Below, piece by piece: positions 16,083-24,774 of a stretch of DNA of 64,000 nucleotides. Numbering within the stretch: position 1 is the first letter of the stretch; every line of letters begins with the position of its first letter. The position numbers were made by a program, and so were the translations under genes. The notes beneath the pieces are model-generated. The model made no database searches and was not told where the DNA came from. It worked only from the letters and a program-made list of their open reading frames with translations. This stretch comes from a virus (Duplodnaviria > Heunggongvirae > Uroviricota > Caudoviricetes): the IMG/VR virus record IMGVR_UViG_3300031772_000005. One strand, written 5' to 3'.

Positions 16083-16619
16083 ATGAGTTTATCAACTAAA
16101 GATCCTGTGAATAGAAAAGAAAAAACTGAACAACTATTCAAGGAACATGAACATAAATTTAAGATTTTAGATATTAATAACCCTTTGTTTATACCAAAAT
16201 GTGCTTATAAACCATATGGTAAAACAGAATATATGCTTGGATTTTTTCCAAGTGAATTAAAAAGAGGTGAAGATATCTATACTGAATTTGTAAGTATAGA
16301 ACTTGATTCTGAAGATACTACACGTACCTTATATAAATGGAGATACAATCCCCATTATGAAACAGAATATGAGACAACAGAACCCAATGCTAAAGGAGAT
16401 GTAAGATATCTCATCCCAGTAGCTGAATTGATTAAGATTGAAATTAAAGCAGATCCACTAAATGAAGAGTCTGATAAATTTCCTGATTTTACAGAATTGA
16501 TGAACACAGATGAGGATGCTCCTCTATCTATGTTAACAATTAGAGATCTTGCAGCTATTATGTTGCAAAAACCGGTGAGTCAAAAAGAATGGTTAAATAA
16601 AATTATTAATAAATCATGA
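16083..16619 (+). CDS. hypothetical acidic protein
   Basis: 178 aa. Confidence 0.5.
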   Translation: MSLSTKDPVNRKEKTEQLFKEHEHKFKILDINNPLFIPKCAYKPYGKTEYMLGFFPSELKRGEDIYTEFVSIELDSEDTTRTLYKWRYNPHYETEYETTEPNAKGDVRYLIPVAELIKIEIKADPLNEESDKFPDFTELMNTDEDAPLSMLTIRDLAAIMLQKPVSQKEWLNKIINKS

Positions 16620-16954
16620 GTTTGATACTACCAACAGGATTAATTGCTCCAACAGAAATTAATCCTAAAAACCTTATTATATTTTCAAAACCAAAGATTG
16701 GTAAAACAAGTTTACTAGCTACATTAGACAAATGTCTTCTATTAGATTTAGAAGGTGGTTCTAATTATGTTAGTGCAATGAAAGTCCAAGCTAACTCTTT
16801 TGAAGAAATTAAAGAAATAGGTAAAGCTATTAAAGAAGCAGGGTATCCCTATAAATATGTAGCAGTTGACACTATTACAGCTTTAGAAGAGATGATTGTA
16901 CCTTATGCTGAAATACTATACTCCAAAAGCCCTAAACGTCCTTGGGGCATATAG
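16616..16954 (+). CDS. AAA_24/Sak4-like RecA-fold ATPase, exon 1 (ORF runs into the intron to an in-frame stop)
   Basis: Walker A SKPKIGKTSL, LDLEGG, YVAVDTITALEE (Walker B-like); the true exon end is probably near 16933-16942. Confidence 0.5.
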   Translation: MSLILPTGLIAPTEINPKNLIIFSKPKIGKTSLLATLDKCLLLDLEGGSNYVSAMKVQANSFEEIKEIGKAIKEAGYPYKYVAVDTITALEEMIVPYAEILYSKSPKRPWGI

Positions 16955-17817
16955 CAGTGATGTTATATGAAAATCTCTTTAATTGCTGGGAACACTTAAT
17001 TCATATGGGTAAATTTTATTATATGGGAAATTTTTACTATATTGTATAATAAATAAGATACATATGAAAAGTCAATCAGCAGCCAAGCTTTATAAATATT
17101 CAGCATTAGATAATAAACTAATTGGAAAAACTTTTAATAATATAGAAGTTTTAAGTTTATCACATGTAGAAAAAAGTAGAAGATTTTATGATATAAAATG
17201 TTTAAGATGTAATAACTTATCATATATGAGAGGTGATAGATTTACAGGAACTCAAAAATTAAATACATGTAGAAAATGCAGACAAGAAAATGCAATTCTT
17301 ACAAGTAAAAAAAGAGCGACTCCTGAATCAGTTTATTCAAGTTTATATGCTCAATGTAGAAAAGGAGCATCAGCTAGAAATATTACATTTTTAATTTCTT
17401 TAGAAGAATTTAAAAAAATTATTACAAAAGATTGTTATTATTGTGGAGTAGAACCTAGATTATCTAGTACATCTAAAAGATATAACAAAACAACAACGCA
17501 AATAAAACATAATGGTGTAGATAGATTTGACAATACTATAGGATATGTTTTAAATAATTGTGTGCCTTGTTGTAAATTTTGTAATCATATGAAAAGAGAC
17601 TATACTAAAGATGATTTTTTAAATCATATTAAGAAAATTTTTGTTTATAATGAAGGTTCAACGACTATCCCGTAAGGGAGTACATCACAAGCTAATGGTG
17701 ATGGAAATAGGAGAGTTCTCACTAGAGAACGTGATATAGTCTAATCTGTATAGAAATATGCAGCAGTTCATAAGAGAACGTATTAAGTATTGCAAACTTA
17801 ATAGAATATAAATGATG
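16934..17817 (+). mobile_element. group I intron (IA2-like) carrying an HNH homing-endonuclease ORF; boundaries approximate
   Basis: P-like AATTGCTGGGAA (16981-16992); Q-like AATCAGCAGCC (17074-17084, inside the ORF start); R-like GTTCTCACTAGAGAAC (17715-17730); S-like GATATAGTC (17733-17741); terminal hairpin TATTAAG/CTTAATA; flanking ORFs are the two halves of one ATPase. Confidence 0.55.
17064..17675 (+). CDS. HNH homing endonuclease (intron-encoded)
   Basis: NGVDRFDNTIGYVLNNCVPCCKFCNHMKRDYT HNH core plus multiple CxxC zinc knuckles. Confidence 0.75.
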   Translation: MKSQSAAKLYKYSALDNKLIGKTFNNIEVLSLSHVEKSRRFYDIKCLRCNNLSYMRGDRFTGTQKLNTCRKCRQENAILTSKKRATPESVYSSLYAQCRKGASARNITFLISLEEFKKIITKDCYYCGVEPRLSSTSKRYNKTTTQIKHNGVDRFDNTIGYVLNNCVPCCKFCNHMKRDYTKDDFLNHIKKIFVYNEGSTTIP

Positions 17818-18258
17818 GGTAAAAATTGGTTTAAAGAAGAAGATGGTGGTAAATTAAAATACGGTACTATATTAGGTTTACCTGATGGTGCGGGTTATTA
17901 TTGGACAAGACAAGCTTTTACTAAAGTTCTTGACTATATATTAACTTGGGCTCCTCATGTAATCTTTTTAGGTCACGTAAAAGATACCTTATTAGAAAAA
18001 GCTGGTGCAAGTTTTACTGCAACAGATTTAGATTTAACTGGTAAACTTAAAAGAATTACTATATCTAATTCAGATGCTATAGGTTATCTATACCGTAAAG
18101 GTAAAGCTAATTATATAAGCTTCAAAAGTGATGGTGACATAGCATGTGGTGCTAGACCTGATCACTTAAAAAACCAAGAAATTATGATTTCTGAAATTAC
18201 CCCAGAAGGTGAATATAAAACATACTGGGACAAAATATTTTTAAATATAAACAAATAA
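17812..18258 (+). CDS. AAA_24/Sak4-like ATPase, exon 2
   Basis: PHVIFLGHVKD resembles the AAA_24 C-terminal strand (nvifiaHe); in-frame stop immediately upstream, so no independent long ORF; exon probably begins at 17815 or 17818. Confidence 0.5.
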   Translation: MMGKNWFKEEDGGKLKYGTILGLPDGAGYYWTRQAFTKVLDYILTWAPHVIFLGHVKDTLLEKAGASFTATDLDLTGKLKRITISNSDAIGYLYRKGKANYISFKSDGDIACGARPDHLKNQEIMISEITPEGEYKTYWDKIFLNINK

Positions 18259-19004: not shown

Positions 19005-19982
19005 ATGCTTTCTACAATTAACTTAACAGATATAACTACTGTACCTATTGAATGGATATTTGAATATTATTTAAATCTCAAGGAAAAACTTGATGGTCAA
19101 GACATAAAGTTGGCTTCTGTTTTTAAATCAGAGAAGACTCCATCTATGTTTATTTATTTAGATTTAGAATCTTTTGAGTATAAATTTAAGGACTTTTCTT
19201 CTGGTTATCAAGGAGATAGCATATCTTTGATAAAGTATATGTTTAACATAGAATATCATGAAGCTATACTTAAGATAGAAAATGATTATGAAGCATTCTT
19301 AAAATATAATACTTCTTATGTACCTAGTATAATGCAAGTACATGATAGGTTTAAAGTAGTTGATTTTCAAATAAGACACTGGAATAATCTTGATCAAGAT
19401 TATTGGTCTAAGTATGGTATCAGTTCAAAAACATTAAGTAAATATAATGTAGCACCTTTAGAATTCTTTAACATGAGTAAGGATAATTTAGATGGTACAA
19501 GTACTAAACTAATTACACAACGTAATTATTTGTATGGCTATTTTAGAAATGATGGTAGTCTCTATAAAATTTATCTTCCTAAAACACCTGATCAGAAATT
19601 TGTGAAAGTAGCTAATTATGTACAGGGAAGTGAACAATTAATTGGTAAAGATTATTTAATTATCTTATCTTCCTTAAAAGATTTAATGGCTTTTAATAGA
19701 TTATCCTTACCTAATATTGAAGCAATTGCTCCAGATAGTGAAAATAGTATGATTGCAGAAAGTGCTCTACAGAAACTTATTGATATACATCATTATAAAA
19801 AATTAATAGTGTTATTTGATAATGATGAATCCGGAATGAAAGCAATGATAAGATATAAAACTAGATATCATCTAGATTATATTGAGTTACCTCTTGAAAA
19901 GGATTTATCAGATTCAGTTAAAAAGTATGGAGCTGAAGAAATTAGAAAAATATTATTAAAACTAATTAAAGAAATATTATGA
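19005..19982 (+). CDS. Toprim-domain protein, putative DnaG-like primase
   Basis: DxD motif LIVLFDNDESG; IILSSLKDLMAF may be the first Toprim strand; no zinc-ribbon seen. Confidence 0.4.
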   Translation: MLSTINLTDITTVPIEWIFEYYLNLKEKLDGQDIKLASVFKSEKTPSMFIYLDLESFEYKFKDFSSGYQGDSISLIKYMFNIEYHEAILKIENDYEAFLKYNTSYVPSIMQVHDRFKVVDFQIRHWNNLDQDYWSKYGISSKTLSKYNVAPLEFFNMSKDNLDGTSTKLITQRNYLYGYFRNDGSLYKIYLPKTPDQKFVKVANYVQGSEQLIGKDYLIILSSLKDLMAFNRLSLPNIEAIAPDSENSMIAESALQKLIDIHHYKKLIVLFDNDESGMKAMIRYKTRYHLDYIELPLEKDLSDSVKKYGAEEIRKILLKLIKEIL

Positions 19983-20404
19983 GTTGGATATATAAAGGTA
20001 AAGAATTTAATGATATGTGTATTCCACAAGATCATGTAGGATTTATTTACATAATGACTGCTATTATTGATGGTAAGTCAGTTACATATATTGGTAAGAA
20101 AAACTTTTTTGCTAATATTAAAAAACCTATGGGTAAAAAAGCTCTAGCAATGAGTACAGATAAACGATTAAAAAAATACATAAGAGAATTAAAACCAGCC
20201 TTTATGAATTATTATAGTAGTAATGCTGTATTAAAACAAGCTCATAAAGATGGTGTATTGATTAAAAGAGAAATACTACACATTTGTAAAACACAAACAG
20301 AATTAACTTATCAAGAAGTAAAGCATCAATTTAAATATGAGGTGCTAGAGAAAGAAGAATTCCTAAATGGAAATATATTAGGAAGATTTTATAAAATTAA
20401 ATAA
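19979..20404 (+). CDS. hypothetical basic protein
   Basis: 141 aa; ATGA coupling. Confidence 0.45.
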   Translation: MSWIYKGKEFNDMCIPQDHVGFIYIMTAIIDGKSVTYIGKKNFFANIKKPMGKKALAMSTDKRLKKYIRELKPAFMNYYSSNAVLKQAHKDGVLIKREILHICKTQTELTYQEVKHQFKYEVLEKEEFLNGNILGRFYKIK

Positions 20405-21149: not shown

Positions 21150-21377
21150 ATGAAGCATAAAGAAGAATCCTTAGCTAAAATAAGTAAAACCTTAATTTTA
21201 GCTGAACCCTTTTATGGTTTCTTATTGATAATGTTAAATAAAATATGGAGCAATAAACTTGTTCCAACTGCTGGTGTAAGTAAAAATGGTATAAATTACC
21301 AGTTAGCTATAAATCCTGAATTTTGGGAAAACCTATCTAATGAACATAGATATGGTGTACTTAAGCATGAGCTTAAT
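21150..21377 (+). CDS. putative metallopeptidase-VWA protein (DUF2201-like), exon 1
   Basis: Ends ...YGVLKHELN, then an in-frame TAG at the intron start; joins exon 2 to give HELNHIAFFH (HExxHxxxxH). Confidence 0.55.
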
Positions 21378-22485
21378 TAGGGCTCCTTATATAGTAATGT
21401 ATATGTAAAACGTCTTAAATTGCGGGAACTGCCTAAAGCTTTATCTACCAAGTATGCATAGTAATATAGTATATGGCCAGAGTAACTATCTGGGTATGGT
21501 AAAAATGATAAAGATGTCCGAATGGCAAATCCGCAGCCAAATTTCTTAGTTATATAATTTATTTTTGGTATATTGTAGTATAAATACTTACATATATGAA
21601 AACAGAAATAGAACAAAAAGTAATTGATTATTATATTACTGATAAATTATCAGGTAAAAAGATTGCAAGTTTATTACAAATAAATGTAAAAACTGTATTT
21701 GCAATTTTAAAAAGAAATAATGTAAAATCAAGAACTTTGTCTGAATCAGCAATGAAATACACTTGTCAAGATGACTTTTTTAATGTTATAAACACAGAGA
21801 AAAAAGCTTATTGGTTAGGAGTATTGTTTGCAGATGGGAATATTACAAAAAAAGCAAGTAACTCTGGACAAATTATTTTTTCATCAAAAGATAAAGAATG
21901 GGTAGACCTATTTTTATCAGATATTGGATCAAATAATTCTTCAAATTGTGAATATCAAAAAGTATTTAAAAAATATATATGGAAAGCTCAGATAACTTCT
22001 GCGCAAATGTATAATAATTTAAATAATTTAGGATGTACACCAGCTAAAACTAAAACAATTAAAATACCTATGTTAAATGATGAGTTAATTCATCATTTTA
22101 TTAGAGGTTACTTTGATGGTGATGGTACAGTTGGTGTTTATAAAAATCTAACAAGTAATGACTGGAAAATTTTAAAATCCGGTTTTTGTTCAGGTTCACA
22201 AGAATTTATTATAGACTTATTGAAAATATTACCAGTAAAAAATAAAACTATTAAACAAGTTAAGAATTGTTATATAACACAACATTCTTTACATGATAGT
22301 CTTAATTTATTTGAATATATGTATAAAAATTATACTAGATGTTTAGATAGAAAAAGACAAGTTTTCATTAATTACTTAGACACATATAAACCAAGAAAGA
22401 GGTTCAACGACTACAATAGACCATCCCAATAGGGATGAAGGTATAGTCTGATCTCATGTGAAAGCATGAGTTAACAAAATGCTTG
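21378..22485 (+). mobile_element. group I intron (IA2-like) carrying a LAGLIDADG homing-endonuclease ORF
   Basis: P element AAATTGCGGGAA (21417-21428); Q element AAATCCGCAGCC (21537-21548); S element GGTATAGTCTG (22440-22450); P9 hairpin CTCATG-tgaaag-CATGAG (22453-22470); terminal G at 22485; exon 1 ends in U; 5' boundary +/-3 nt. Confidence 0.6.
21596..22432 (+). CDS. LAGLIDADG homing endonuclease (double-motif, intron-encoded)
   Basis: Two LAGLIDADG motifs: YWLGVLFADGNI and IRGYFDGDGTV. Confidence 0.8.
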   Translation: MKTEIEQKVIDYYITDKLSGKKIASLLQINVKTVFAILKRNNVKSRTLSESAMKYTCQDDFFNVINTEKKAYWLGVLFADGNITKKASNSGQIIFSSKDKEWVDLFLSDIGSNNSSNCEYQKVFKKYIWKAQITSAQMYNNLNNLGCTPAKTKTIKIPMLNDELIHHFIRGYFDGDGTVGVYKNLTSNDWKILKSGFCSGSQEFIIDLLKILPVKNKTIKQVKNCYITQHSLHDSLNLFEYMYKNYTRCLDRKRQVFINYLDTYKPRKRFNDYNRPSQ

Positions 22486-23580
22486 CATATTGCTTTTTTT
22501 CATCTTACTCAACATCATAACTATTCTGATAGAAAGCTAGCTAACATTGCTATGGATATGGAAATAAACCAATACATAGATGATGAACACTTACCTACTA
22601 AAGAATTAAGTAAAGAAGAATATGATGCTATAGTAGATCCTATTAAAGAAGAGATTACAAAGGCAAAAGAAAAAGATGATGTAACACTTGAAGAAATCAG
22701 GGCTTTAGTAGATACTATACCTATGAGAGGTATATTTATTAAAGATTATCCAGATTTAAATCTAGATATGAAAGCAGGTAGTAGATATTATTATGATAAA
22801 CTACGAGAAGCTAAAGAAAAGAAAGAAAAAACAGGTGGTAGTGGAGATTTAAACTTTGATGCATTATGTGATGATATGGGTTCTGATGATCCTAACTTAT
22901 GGAATCATACTACATGGGAGGAGTTTGATAATTTATCTGAAGCTGAAAAGAAATTAATTGATAAGCAAGTAGATACTTTACTTAAGCATGCAGCTGATAT
23001 GACTCAAAAGAAAAGAGGTACTATACCTGGAGAATTAGAAGCTTACTTATTAAGTTTAGAACAAATTGAAAAAGCTAAATTTGATTGGAAAGGGTATATC
23101 AGAAGATTTACCGGTGTATCTACTAAAGTATACACTAAAAAGATAAGAAGAAAAGAAAATAAAAGATTTTCAGATAATCCGGGCTTAAAACTTAAAATGA
23201 AACAACATATGTTACTAGCAATAGATACATCAGGTTCTGTAAGTGATGAAGAATTAAAAGAATTTATGAATGAAATTCATCATATTTACAAAACTGGAGT
23301 AGATATTACTATAATTCAATGTGATGCAACTATACAAAGTATAAAAGAATATAAAGGTAAATTTGATGGCATCCATATAGGAGGCAGAGGAGGTACAGCA
23401 TTTGATCCAGTATTAGAATATTATAACGGACATTTAAAGAAATATACTAGTTTAGTATATTTTACAGATGGAGAATGTCATACTTATGTAAAACCTAAAT
23501 CACCTGTATTATGGGTGTTATCTGAAAGATCACATATGAATGAAGATCTTCCGGGAAAAACGATTAAACTTGAACTATAA
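22486..23580 (+). CDS. putative metallopeptidase-VWA protein, exon 2 (VWA domain)
   Basis: MIDAS motif LLAIDTSGSVSDEEL; no ATG start (the track ORF uses TTG at 22483); frame is continuous with exon 1 after intron removal. Confidence 0.55.
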   Translation, partial: HIAFFHLTQHHNYSDRKLANIAMDMEINQYIDDEHLPTKELSKEEYDAIVDPIKEEITKAKEKDDVTLEEIRALVDTIPMRGIFIKDYPDLNLDMKAGSRYYYDKLREAKEKKEKTGGSGDLNFDALCDDMGSDDPNLWNHTTWEEFDNLSEAEKKLIDKQVDTLLKHAADMTQKKRGTIPGELEAYLLSLEQIEKAKFDWKGYIRRFTGVSTKVYTKKIRRKENKRFSDNPGLKLKMKQHMLLAIDTSGSVSDEELKEFMNEIHHIYKTGVDITIIQCDATIQSIKEYKGKFDGIHIGGRGGTAFDPVLEYYNGHLKKYTSLVYFTDGECHTYVKPKSPVLWVLSERSHMNEDLPGKTIKLEL

Positions 23581-23592
23581 ATAAAAACAAAA

Positions 23593-24774
23593 ATGAGCCA
23601 GAGTAAATTAATACAATTAAACGTAGATGAATTAAAAGATTATTTAGAGCACATGGTTTCTAATAATCAATATATACAAGCACAAGGTAAAGTACCTGTA
23701 ACAATAAACATTGAAGGTGATTCAGGCCTTGGTAAAACATCAGCTATAAAACAATTTGCTGACAGCAAGAATATGGATGTCATTAGATTAAATTTAGCTG
23801 AGTTTGAAGAGTTAGGTGATTTAGTAGGTTTTCCATTAAAAGAATACTTAATTGAGAATAAAGAAGGTAAGTCAGCTTGGGTAGTTGATGCTCAACTTGA
23901 AACTGCTGTAAAATCCGGTTATAGAGTTAAAGATAAAAGAATGTCACATGCTGCTCCTGAATGGATTCAGGGTAAAACAGAAGGTGGTTTCTTAATTCTT
24001 GATGATTATACTAGAGCTGATCACAGATTTATGCAAGCAACAATGACTTTAGTTGAAGAACAGTCTTATGCATCATGGAAGTTACCTAAAAACTGGCATA
24101 TTATTCTTACTACTAATCCAGATAATGGAGATTATAACGTAACTTCATTAGACAATGCACAAAGAACAAGATTTGTAAGTGTAGAACTTAAGTTTGATGT
24201 AAATGTATGGGCAAGATGGGCTGAAGCAAATAACATTGATGGAAGATGTATTAATTTTCTATTGATGCATCCTGAATTAGTTACAGAAACTATAAATCCT
24301 AGAAGTATAACATTATTCTTTAACTCAATTAGTTCATTACCTAAGTTTGAAGACTCTTTACCATTAATACAAATGATTGGTGAAGGATCCGTTGGACCTG
24401 AATTTTCAAGTTTATTTACTATGTTTATTAATAATAAGCTTGACAAAATTATTGCTCCTCAAGATGTGATTACTAATCCAAATGAAGCATATGTGTTAGG
24501 TGCATTATCATCAGCTATTGGTAAAGATGATGACTATAGAGCAGATATTGCAAGTGTAATTGCTACAAGACTTGTAAATTATTCTTTAATTCATGCTTCA
24601 AAAGAACCCGTAAGCGCACCTATGATTCAAAGATTAGTAAAACTTACAACAGATTGTGAGGCTTTTACTAATGATTTGAAATACTATATGGTTAAAGAAA
24701 TTGTTAATGGCAATAAAGTAAAATTTGGTGGAATGATGAGAGACACTACAGTTGTAAAGATGACTCTACAATAA
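23593..24774 (+). CDS. AAA_5-type (MoxR-like) ATPase
   Basis: Walker A GDSGLGKTS; GFLILDDYTRADHRFMQATMTLVEE...WHIILTTNPDNGDY matches the AAA_5 Walker B/sensor region. Confidence 0.65.
   Translation: MSQSKLIQLNVDELKDYLEHMVSNNQYIQAQGKVPVTINIEGDSGLGKTSAIKQFADSKNMDVIRLNLAEFEELGDLVGFPLKEYLIENKEGKSAWVVDAQLETAVKSGYRVKDKRMSHAAPEWIQGKTEGGFLILDDYTRADHRFMQATMTLVEEQSYASWKLPKNWHIILTTNPDNGDYNVTSLDNAQRTRFVSVELKFDVNVWARWAEANNIDGRCINFLLMHPELVTETINPRSITLFFNSISSLPKFEDSLPLIQMIGEGSVGPEFSSLFTMFINNKLDKIIAPQDVITNPNEAYVLGALSSAIGKDDDYRADIASVIATRLVNYSLIHASKEPVSAPMIQRLVKLTTDCEAFTNDLKYYMVKEIVNGNKVKFGGMMRDTTVVKMTLQ

Follow-up and report, generated by a model that had tools for sequence, protein, structure and literature searches.

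Introns Related to the Studied Element

Group I introns that carry homing endonucleases and sit in conserved motifs of phage genes are textbook elements. In the td intron of phage T4, the open reading frame (ORF) of the endonuclease I-TevI lies in the P6 region. LAGLIDADG-bearing introns are annotated in Staphylococcus, Bacillus, and crAss-like phages. Among the Herelleviridae, introns sit in lysin, terminase, recA, and DNA polymerase genes (PMC11878797). The element described here lies in a 64,000-nucleotide (nt) stretch of caudoviricete DNA (IMG/VR record IMGVR_UViG_3300031772_000005), which is referred to as the window. Sequence comparison makes it very likely that a mobile self-splicing group I intron is inserted in the HExxH codons of a phage gene for a zincin-VWA protein, the presumed partner of an adjacent MoxR-like ATPase. 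A first-pass annotation of the window had proposed a gene of this type split by a group I intron of about 1.1 kb with a double-LAGLIDADG endonuclease. An intron-less allele, covariation in the ribozyme, and the LAGLIDADG fold of the predicted protein all support that proposal; its splice junction is revised below.

Like the T4 td and Herelleviridae introns, the element has a group I core placed in a conserved catalytic motif, an ORF looped out of P6, and a variable presence among relatives. The layout of its 5′ domain (P2-P6) is that of the introns in the terminase large subunit gene (terL) of Bacillus phage Yucatan and the lysin gene of Staphylococcus phage PALS_1, two split Herelleviridae genes whose internal sequences are 70-74% identical to it. 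Sequences in Vibrio and Pseudomonas phages are similar to the 5′ domain to the same extent (70-74%). Unlike the Herelleviridae introns, the element has a compact 3′ core that lacks the P7.1 and P7.2 hairpins. It also carries a LAGLIDADG endonuclease, whereas HNH enzymes are the commonest in the Bastillevirinae phage introns surveyed (PMC11878797). An intron location is shared with the “mobile intron proteins” of Staphylococcus phage Romulus (under a recombinase A-like gene), Bacillus phage 0305phi8-36, and the crAss-like phage cr116_1. Klebsiella phage Pylas (Schitoviridae) likewise has a group I intron in an ATPase/VWA-peptidase neighborhood, annotated “HNH intron splits the protein” and located in an NTPase gene beside a DUF2201 metallopeptidase/VWA gene. 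However, the Pylas intron lies in the ATPase gene, carries an HNH enzyme, and leaves the DUF2201 gene annotated as uninterrupted, whereas in the window it is the DUF2201 gene that the studied intron interrupts.

The studied intron has no record among 50,697 phage genomes, and the intron-bearing genes and sites found in those records do not include its zincin-VWA (DUF2201) host gene or its insertion site. A full-text literature search for group I introns with phage vWA/metallopeptidase genes returned no such intron, by title, among the matches listed. What is new here is the host gene with its insertion site, the uncultured lineage, and the comparative data set. For annotation, the locus is a case in which gene callers show three unrelated ORFs and overlook a 440-amino-acid (aa) zincin-VWA protein, the Rfam threshold overlooks the intron, and a corrected junction leads to the true protein with HELLH. 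For phage biology, it adds a host gene and an insertion site to those used by group I introns, with a LAGLIDADG-bearing intron apparently moving among phages whose host proteins share 45-69% identity. The 14 distinct intron sequences also provide a ready covariation set for a compact phage ribozyme. The general understanding of group I introns and homing endonucleases is unchanged.

The Interrupted Gene and Its Intron-Less Allele

All three ORFs of the region lie on one strand, at 21150-21380 (76 aa), 21596-22432 (278 aa), and 22483-23580. As the first-pass annotation described, the first ends in ...GVLKHELN before its stop codon, and the third has no ATG and begins HIAFFHLTQHH, its listed start being TTG. 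The Pfam family DUF2201_N (“putative metallopeptidase domain”) is divided between the two outer ORFs, with profile positions 3-68 in the first and 70-236 in the third. The third also matches the VWA-like family DUF2201 at 64.8 bits. The spliced product of 440 aa (...K-H-E-L-L-H-I-A-F-F-H...) has a single continuous DUF2201_N match over residues 5-285 at 64.0 bits (cut-off 23.2), compared with 24.2 and 21.7 bits for the separate pieces. Its DUF2201 match is 64.3 bits (cut-off 26.4), and HELLHIAFFH and DTSGS are both present. By tblastn, exon 1 matches homologue residues 1-75 at 100%. Of thousands of homologues, the 120 best-scoring include 119 uninterrupted proteins of 398-441 aa that span the full joined query and are 63-88% identical to it. 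The exception, P0003 (99% identical), corresponds to the exon-2 ORF on a near-identical contig. Because uninterrupted homologues cover both ORFs and the DUF2201_N match is continuous, the joined ORFs 21150-21380 and 22483-23580 are the two exons of one DUF2201_N/DUF2201 (zincin plus VWA) gene, which bears out the earlier proposal of a zincin-VWA gene split in its HExxH motif.

Exon 1 (21150-21373, plus strand) has the 3′ end AAG CAT GAG CU, which encodes K-H-E and the first two bases of a Leu codon. Exon 2 (22482-23580, plus strand) starts C UUG CAU and completes the Leu-Leu-His of HELLH; it continues with the remainder of the zincin domain and then the VWA domain with its metal ion-dependent adhesion site, DTSGS...T...D. 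The cultured-phage relatives of this gene are distant (25-28% identity) and include those of N4-like phages, Alteromonas AD45, and AR9/PBS1, with the annotation “zincin-like protease fused to vWA domain”.

The insert is precisely missing from a close relative. On L004, a syntenic contig with P0001 (88% protein identity), the gene runs without a break and has the same neighbors as in the window, a 138-aa ORF on its upstream side and a 393-aa ATPase on its downstream side. The L004 nucleotides read AGATATGGTGTACTTAAGCATGAGCT-CTTACATATTGC, and the window has the same 26 bases, then 1108 extra, then CTTGCATATTGC. Around the insertion site, the intron-less allele is GGTGTACTTAAGCATGAGCTCTTACATATTGCTTTCTTTC (also given as GTACTTAAGCATGAGCTCTTACATATTGCTTTC), and it reads GAGCTCTTACAT where the window has GAGCT|intron|CTTGCAT. 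Among 84 loci tested, the gene is split only in the near-identical L003 and L007 and uninterrupted in the remainder. The L003 intron copy has no mismatch to the window intron.

The Splice Junction

The group I intron (1108 nt) is placed at 21374-22481 on the plus strand on the basis of its precise absence in L004, sub-threshold Rfam matches, covariation, and an RNAalifold consensus. For comparison, a viral-contig search with the 278-aa ORF yielded 24 further loci, and 14 distinct homologous introns were aligned after removal of the ORF. The length of 1108 nt given in the first-pass annotation is correct. Its junction, after U21377 and after G22485, is not the only one that removes this length. 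Enumeration of all in-frame U...G joins gave a second 1108-nt join, after U21373 and after G22481, which yields HELLH. On the comparative evidence, the predicted junction is 21373|22482, with the intron at 21374-22481 rather than 21378-22485, and the earlier junction is four bases too far downstream.

HELLH is found in all 119 uninterrupted homologues. The U21373.G21381 wobble is invariant in the 14 introns, and the next pair (21374-21380) is C-G in nine and U.G in five. G22481 is also invariant (14/14), and the two bases preceding it pair with 22451-22452 (P9.0), with an A-U to G-C change in L091. The intron-less allele, CUC UUA, agrees with CU|C UUG. By the U21373/G22481 rule, 23 of the 24 intron-bearing loci would splice in frame through HELLH. 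The predicted ligated exons are CAUGAGCU|CUUGCAUAUU, the join reading GAGCUCUUGCAU as opposed to GAGCUUAAUCAU for the earlier one.

The alternative junction at 21374, which the first-pass annotation had derived from a P1 pairing, is one base off: that base is C paired with G in nine of the 14 copies, and the invariant wobble is at U21373. A junction at 21374/22482 also produces HELLH but was rejected, because the intron would then have to end in C and, in 9/14 copies, exon 1 would end in C as well.

RNAalifold additionally gave a 5-bp pairing between UGUAA at 21404-21408, just 3′ of P2, and UUGCA of exon 2 at 22483-22487. Of the 14 sequences, 13 keep this pairing, though only with invariant bases or with changes on one side. 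It might stand in for the weak canonical P10 or be due to chance.

Structure and Covariation of the Ribozyme

The first-pass annotation had listed textbook P, Q, and S elements, a P9 hairpin, and a terminal G. All are present at the positions it gave: P, Q, and S lie at 21417-21428, 21527-21538, and 22440-22450, and the R element GGTTCAACGACTA lies at 22401-22413. All features that follow are on the plus strand. In the P1 hairpin (21369-21385), exon GAGCU and U21374 pair with the internal guide GGGCUC (21380-21385), placing the 5′ splice site after U21373. P1 is 100% paired and has one compensatory G-C to A-U change, in L088. The P2 hairpin (21388-21403) has a GUAA tetraloop and compensatory changes in three of its six pairs, with all cells paired. 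The 5′ strand of P3 (GUCU, 21412-21415) pairs with AGAC at 22418-22421 in a pseudoknot with P7; 3/4 pairs are compensatory, again with 100% of cells paired.

The region 21420-21536 contains P4 (21420-26/21530-36), J4/5, P5 (21430-33/21524-27), and a 90-nt P5 extension. P4 is invariant and fits the Rfam P/Q consensus. The extension consists of P5a, P5b, and two hairpins, one of them GNRA-capped, and includes 15 compensatory pairs (helices 6-9). The same layout is found in the ORF-less intron of Bacillus phage terL. GNRA tetraloops cap P2, P5c, and P9.

The 5′ strands of P6 (CC) and P6a (UUUCUU) are assigned to 21537-21547, with partners at 22401-22402 and 22393-22398 that would close the 845-nt ORF-bearing loop L6a, in keeping with RNAalifold. 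We infer this assignment (CC/GG and UUUCUU/AAGAAA) by analogy with the ORF-less Bacillus intron, which at the P6 position has CC-AAG-[CCUCU...AGAGG]-AA-GG-UUCAACGACUA with a short P6a hairpin. A local P6 hairpin, CCAA/UUGG (21537-21550), was rejected: it is broken in the window, L089, L092, and L108, and the long-range P6/P6a is preferred because of its analogy to the Bacillus intron.

The 3′ catalytic core (22409-22448) is made up of P7 (22409-13/22444-48), the 3′ strand of P3 (22418-21), the P8 hairpin (22422-37), and J8/7 (AAGGUA). The R and S elements align to the RF00028 consensus at high posterior probability; P7 is invariant, and P8 has two compensatory pairs. The last segment (22451-22481) comprises P9.0 (A22451-U22480, U22452-A22479), the P9 hairpin with a GAAA loop (22453-22470; three compensatory pairs), and the terminal omegaG22481.

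Pairs were counted in the 14-intron alignment for a hand-drawn P1-P9.0 structure, across which 97.5% of cells are paired. Compensatory changes occur in 29 of 81 pairs, compared with 11.5 ± 1.8 for shuffled controls and 1-5 after the partners were displaced by 1-3 columns. They are located in P1, P2, P3, P5, four P5-extension helices, P8, P9, and P9.0. RNAalifold, run independently on the same alignment, recovered P1, P2, P4, P5 and its extension, P6 with P6a, P7, P8, and P9.

The Rfam group I model (Intron_gpI, RF00028) has a gathering threshold of 50 bits. Run on the 1.26-kb region alone, it gave 34.2 bits (E 1e-6) over the 3′ core, aligned as ...GGUUCAACGACUA...AGAC-CAUCCCAAUAGGGAUG-AAGGUAUAGUCUG-P9, and 20.0 bits (E 0.02) over P3-P4-P5-P6. 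The model is interrupted by the 845-nt loop. The Rfam check suggested in the first-pass annotation therefore returned matches on both halves, each of them below gathering. Together with the 70-74% identity of the 5′ core to introns in split Herelleviridae genes, they place the observation above chance.

The same annotation had pointed out that the 3′ arm of P9 repeats the last exon-1 codons. The 9-mer AAGCATGAG does occur at 21363 and 22462, but the repeat is neither conserved nor significant, as 18 of 100 shuffles give at least two copies. Its role as a functional pairing or duplication was rejected, since the copies vary independently in homologues (in L100, for example, exon CAUGAG and P9 arm UGUGAG). 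Another candidate, from a single-sequence fold, pairs exon 1 AAGCAU (21363-68) with AUGCUU across the 3′ splice site. It is kept in about half of the homologues and was set aside as not being a required element.

The LAGLIDADG Endonuclease

The homing endonuclease gene (21596-22432, plus strand; 837 nt, 278 aa) lies in the P6a loop, and its stop codon falls in the P8 loop. It matches Pfam LAGLIDADG_3 (PF14528) at 31.3 bits (cut-off 22.5) and phrog_4645 (“endonuclease”) at E 1.7e-48. Its two motifs are LGVLFADGN (D80) and IRGYFDGDG (D174/D176). In a 43-sequence alignment, D80/G81 (LFADG) and D174-G177 (DGDG) are invariant. Database relatives number more than 1100, and PF14528 is present in all 120 of those listed.

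The AlphaFold model (predicted local distance difference test score 88.9) has an N-terminal three-helix helix-turn-helix (HTH; residues 2-40) followed by two αββαββα halves. The best Foldseek match in the PDB is I-Tsp061I (E 1.7e-9), followed by I-AniI, I-SceI, the bI3 maturase, and I-DmoI; the probability is 1.00 for I-Tsp061I, I-AniI, I-SceI, and I-DmoI. These four enzymes share with the model the two αββαββα halves and an Asp that ends each LAGLIDADG helix. As modeled, the ORF product is a LAGLIDADG endonuclease of the monomeric, double-motif type in which the catalytic Asp residues are intact. The first-pass assignment of an 837-nt double-LAGLIDADG ORF is confirmed by both motifs and the duplicated fold. 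Identity is 14-18% to solved structures and 25-34% to cultured-phage proteins. Unlike both groups, this protein has an extra N-terminal HTH and a C-terminal tail for which the ribozyme core provides the codons.

The last 13 codons (22393-22432) are dual-coding and also specify the 3′ strands of P6a and P6, J6/7, P7, the 3′ strand of P3, and the 5′ strand of P8. The resulting tail, PRKRFNDYNRPSQ, is the translated ribozyme from the P6a 3′ strand to P8; it ends ...PRKRFNDYNR and has low AlphaFold confidence. Of 120 relatives, 62 have an FNDY-like tail. Another 27 terminate in ...STTI..., a reading of the same GUUCAACGACUA element in a different frame. Because this element recurs in two reading frames, conservation of the tail is probably imposed by the RNA. 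In a promoter and terminator scan around the endonuclease ORF, matches were no more numerous than in shuffles.

Spread of the Intron

At all 24 further loci, the endonuclease ORF (84-91% protein identity) is at the same position of the DUF2201 gene. Between the window and 13 other loci, nucleotide identity is 88-93% in the intron and 66-75% in the flanks (200 nt of exon 1, 600 nt of exon 2). The host proteins are only 45-69% identical among intron-bearing loci, and the intron is present in some close relatives and absent from others. Because the intron is far more conserved than the flanking exons, these comparisons indicate that it has spread by homing into the conserved KHELLHIA codons.

A further insertion of about 1 kb is present in the DUF2201 gene of other contigs, at L088 3463-4572, L095 3796-4764, L096 2834-3802, and L110 4162-5130. 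It falls at residues ~100 to ~152 in L088 and at 379/380 in L095, L096, and L110. The 5′ parts of these second-site inserts are 71-78% identical to the core of the studied intron. This resemblance suggests that one gene has several intron sites.

Proposed Mechanism and Alternative Explanations

By the standard group I pathway, the pre-mRNA would fold into P1-P9. Exogenous guanosine in P7 would attack the phosphate after U21373, which would be held as a U.G wobble with G21381 in P1. The terminal G22481, positioned by the 2-bp P9.0, would take the guanosine’s place in the site, and the 3′ OH of U21373 would attack after G22481, joining CU|C and restoring HELLH. During co-infection, the endonuclease presumably cuts the KHELLHIA-coding target of an intron-less relative, and repair would copy the intron in.

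The same intron spliced at the junction of the first-pass annotation, after U21377 and after G22485, would give HELNH and is extremely improbable. In the window, this junction too is preceded by U at the 5′ site and by G at the 3′ site; it is in frame, keeps HExxH, and removes an equal 1108 nt. However, N occurs at the position concerned in none of the 119 homologues, U21377 would lie in the P1 loop without a G partner, and the P9.0 pairs end at 22480, beside G22481. The base before CAT is A in five of the 14 copies (L088, L091, L097, L100, and L111), whose introns would then end without omegaG. Moreover, the intron-less allele has CTCTTA and not CTTAAT, and the Pfam score falls by 2.7 bits. 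A second alternative is that the insert does not splice at all and is a decayed intron or a free-standing endonuclease cassette, with the gene being a pseudogene or producing two polypeptides. One point for this explanation is that phages are known to have genes that an endonuclease gene splits in the absence of any intron. The gene callers’ output of three ORFs, with exon 2 read from an internal ATG as a 342-aa protein, is another, as are the Rfam scores below gathering. Several results do weigh against a splicing intron with the structure and junction given here. The whole-window Rfam scan reported no match at the gathering threshold or at E ≤ 0.1, and neither intron half attains the gathering score (34.2 and 20.0 vs. 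50 bits). P4, P6, P6a, and P7 never vary in the 14 sequences, so covariation is uninformative on them. Because the sequences used for covariation are closely related (88-93% identical), certain compensatory changes enter the count more than once; P3 has 4 bp only, and a canonical P10 has at best 2 bp. The L090 copy is frameshifted just after the junction by an extra C (TTTACCATAT vs. TTTACATAT in L091; ~3398-3410), either an assembly error or a decaying allele. The gathering threshold is a poor test for phage introns. The related Yucatan terL intron (44.7 bits) and the PALS_1 lysin intron (no Intron_gpI match at E < 0.001) also miss it. The limitation of the Rfam group I model for phage introns has been discussed likewise (PMC11878797). 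The absence of a group I model hit, which the first-pass annotation would have taken as a refutation, would have misled, an annotated phage intron being below the threshold as well. Against a non-splicing insert, the catalytic-core elements are intact and invariant, and the peripheral helices keep their pairing by compensatory changes. The exons stay open and in frame in 23/24 copies despite host genes at 45-69% identity, which argues for continued selection on the spliced product. Without splicing, the split would part HEL from LH of the zinc site, and no start codon is located near the 5′ end of exon 2. A non-splicing insert is accordingly judged very unlikely.

An intron that splices but is immobile, its LAGLIDADG protein being an inactive nuclease or a maturase only, is distinctly unlikely. 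Among the closest structures are indeed two LAGLIDADG proteins that act as splicing factors, I-AniI and the bI3 maturase. Nevertheless, the catalytic Asp of both motifs is invariant in the 43 homologues, intron presence differs between close relatives, and the excess of intron identity (88-93%) over exon identity (66-75%) needs recent horizontal movement. The mobile, self-splicing intron may also be viewed within a broader picture, which is possible but rather unlikely when all its parts are taken jointly. In that picture, one intron/endonuclease lineage would be sweeping through the codons for the active site of the MoxR-partner peptidase in a diverse clade of uncultured phages whose genomes are ~115-130 kb long, and the gene would be a hotspot, at least three different intron sites having been seen among relatives. 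The conserved C-terminal tail of the endonuclease would simply be a protein reading of the ribozyme R element and P7-P8. Endonuclease translation would then preclude ribozyme folding and vice versa, forming a built-in switch between homing and splicing, and the LAGLIDADG protein might also act as a maturase.

Neighboring Genes and the Wider Window

Downstream of the split gene and outside the intron, an AAA+ (MoxR-like) ATPase gene (23593-24774, plus strand) encodes the presumed VWA partner. It matches the phrog_1297 ATPase family (E 1e-33) and, weakly, Pfam AAA_3 and AAA_5. In phages, the MoxR ATPase/vWA-metallopeptidase pair has been proposed by Iyer and colleagues to act as chaperone and cochaperone in the assembly and processing of virions (PMC7824862).

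A second group I intron of 881 nt is located at 16934-17814, between exons 16616-16933 and 17815-18258 of an AAA_24-type ATPase gene. The intact L004 version of this gene encodes 253 aa (...YSKSP|MGKNWF...), and the window sequence joins after U16933 (P1 GCCCU/GGGGC) and G17814. This intron contains an HNH/endonuclease-VII-like ORF (17064-17675), has hairpins at the P7.1/P7.2 position, and scores 23.3 bits with Rfam. Over 52 nt, its 3′ core (17733-17784) shares 94% identity with the “HNH intron” of the Klebsiella phage Pylas NTPase gene. A free-standing gene for a SegE-like GIY-YIG endonuclease (19979-20404; Pfam E 1.8e-21) lies between the primase-like and split peptidase genes and is also present in the intron-less L004 and L005. 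In all, the window holds three homing-type nuclease genes in a stretch of 5.5 kb.

The window phage belongs to an uncultured lineage without a close cultured relative: no near-identical record was found among the 50,697 phage genomes, and the highest identity of its DNA polymerase to a phage record is 34%. The window has about 29% G+C and contains a phage replication module and four giant ORFs. These ORFs are consecutive on the minus strand (31715-57990) and encode 2020, 3734, 1978, and 1020 aa. They match no Pfam or PHROG family except for one LysM domain in the 2020-aa protein. Their layout is reminiscent of the virion-packaged giant proteins of N4-like or crAss-like phages.

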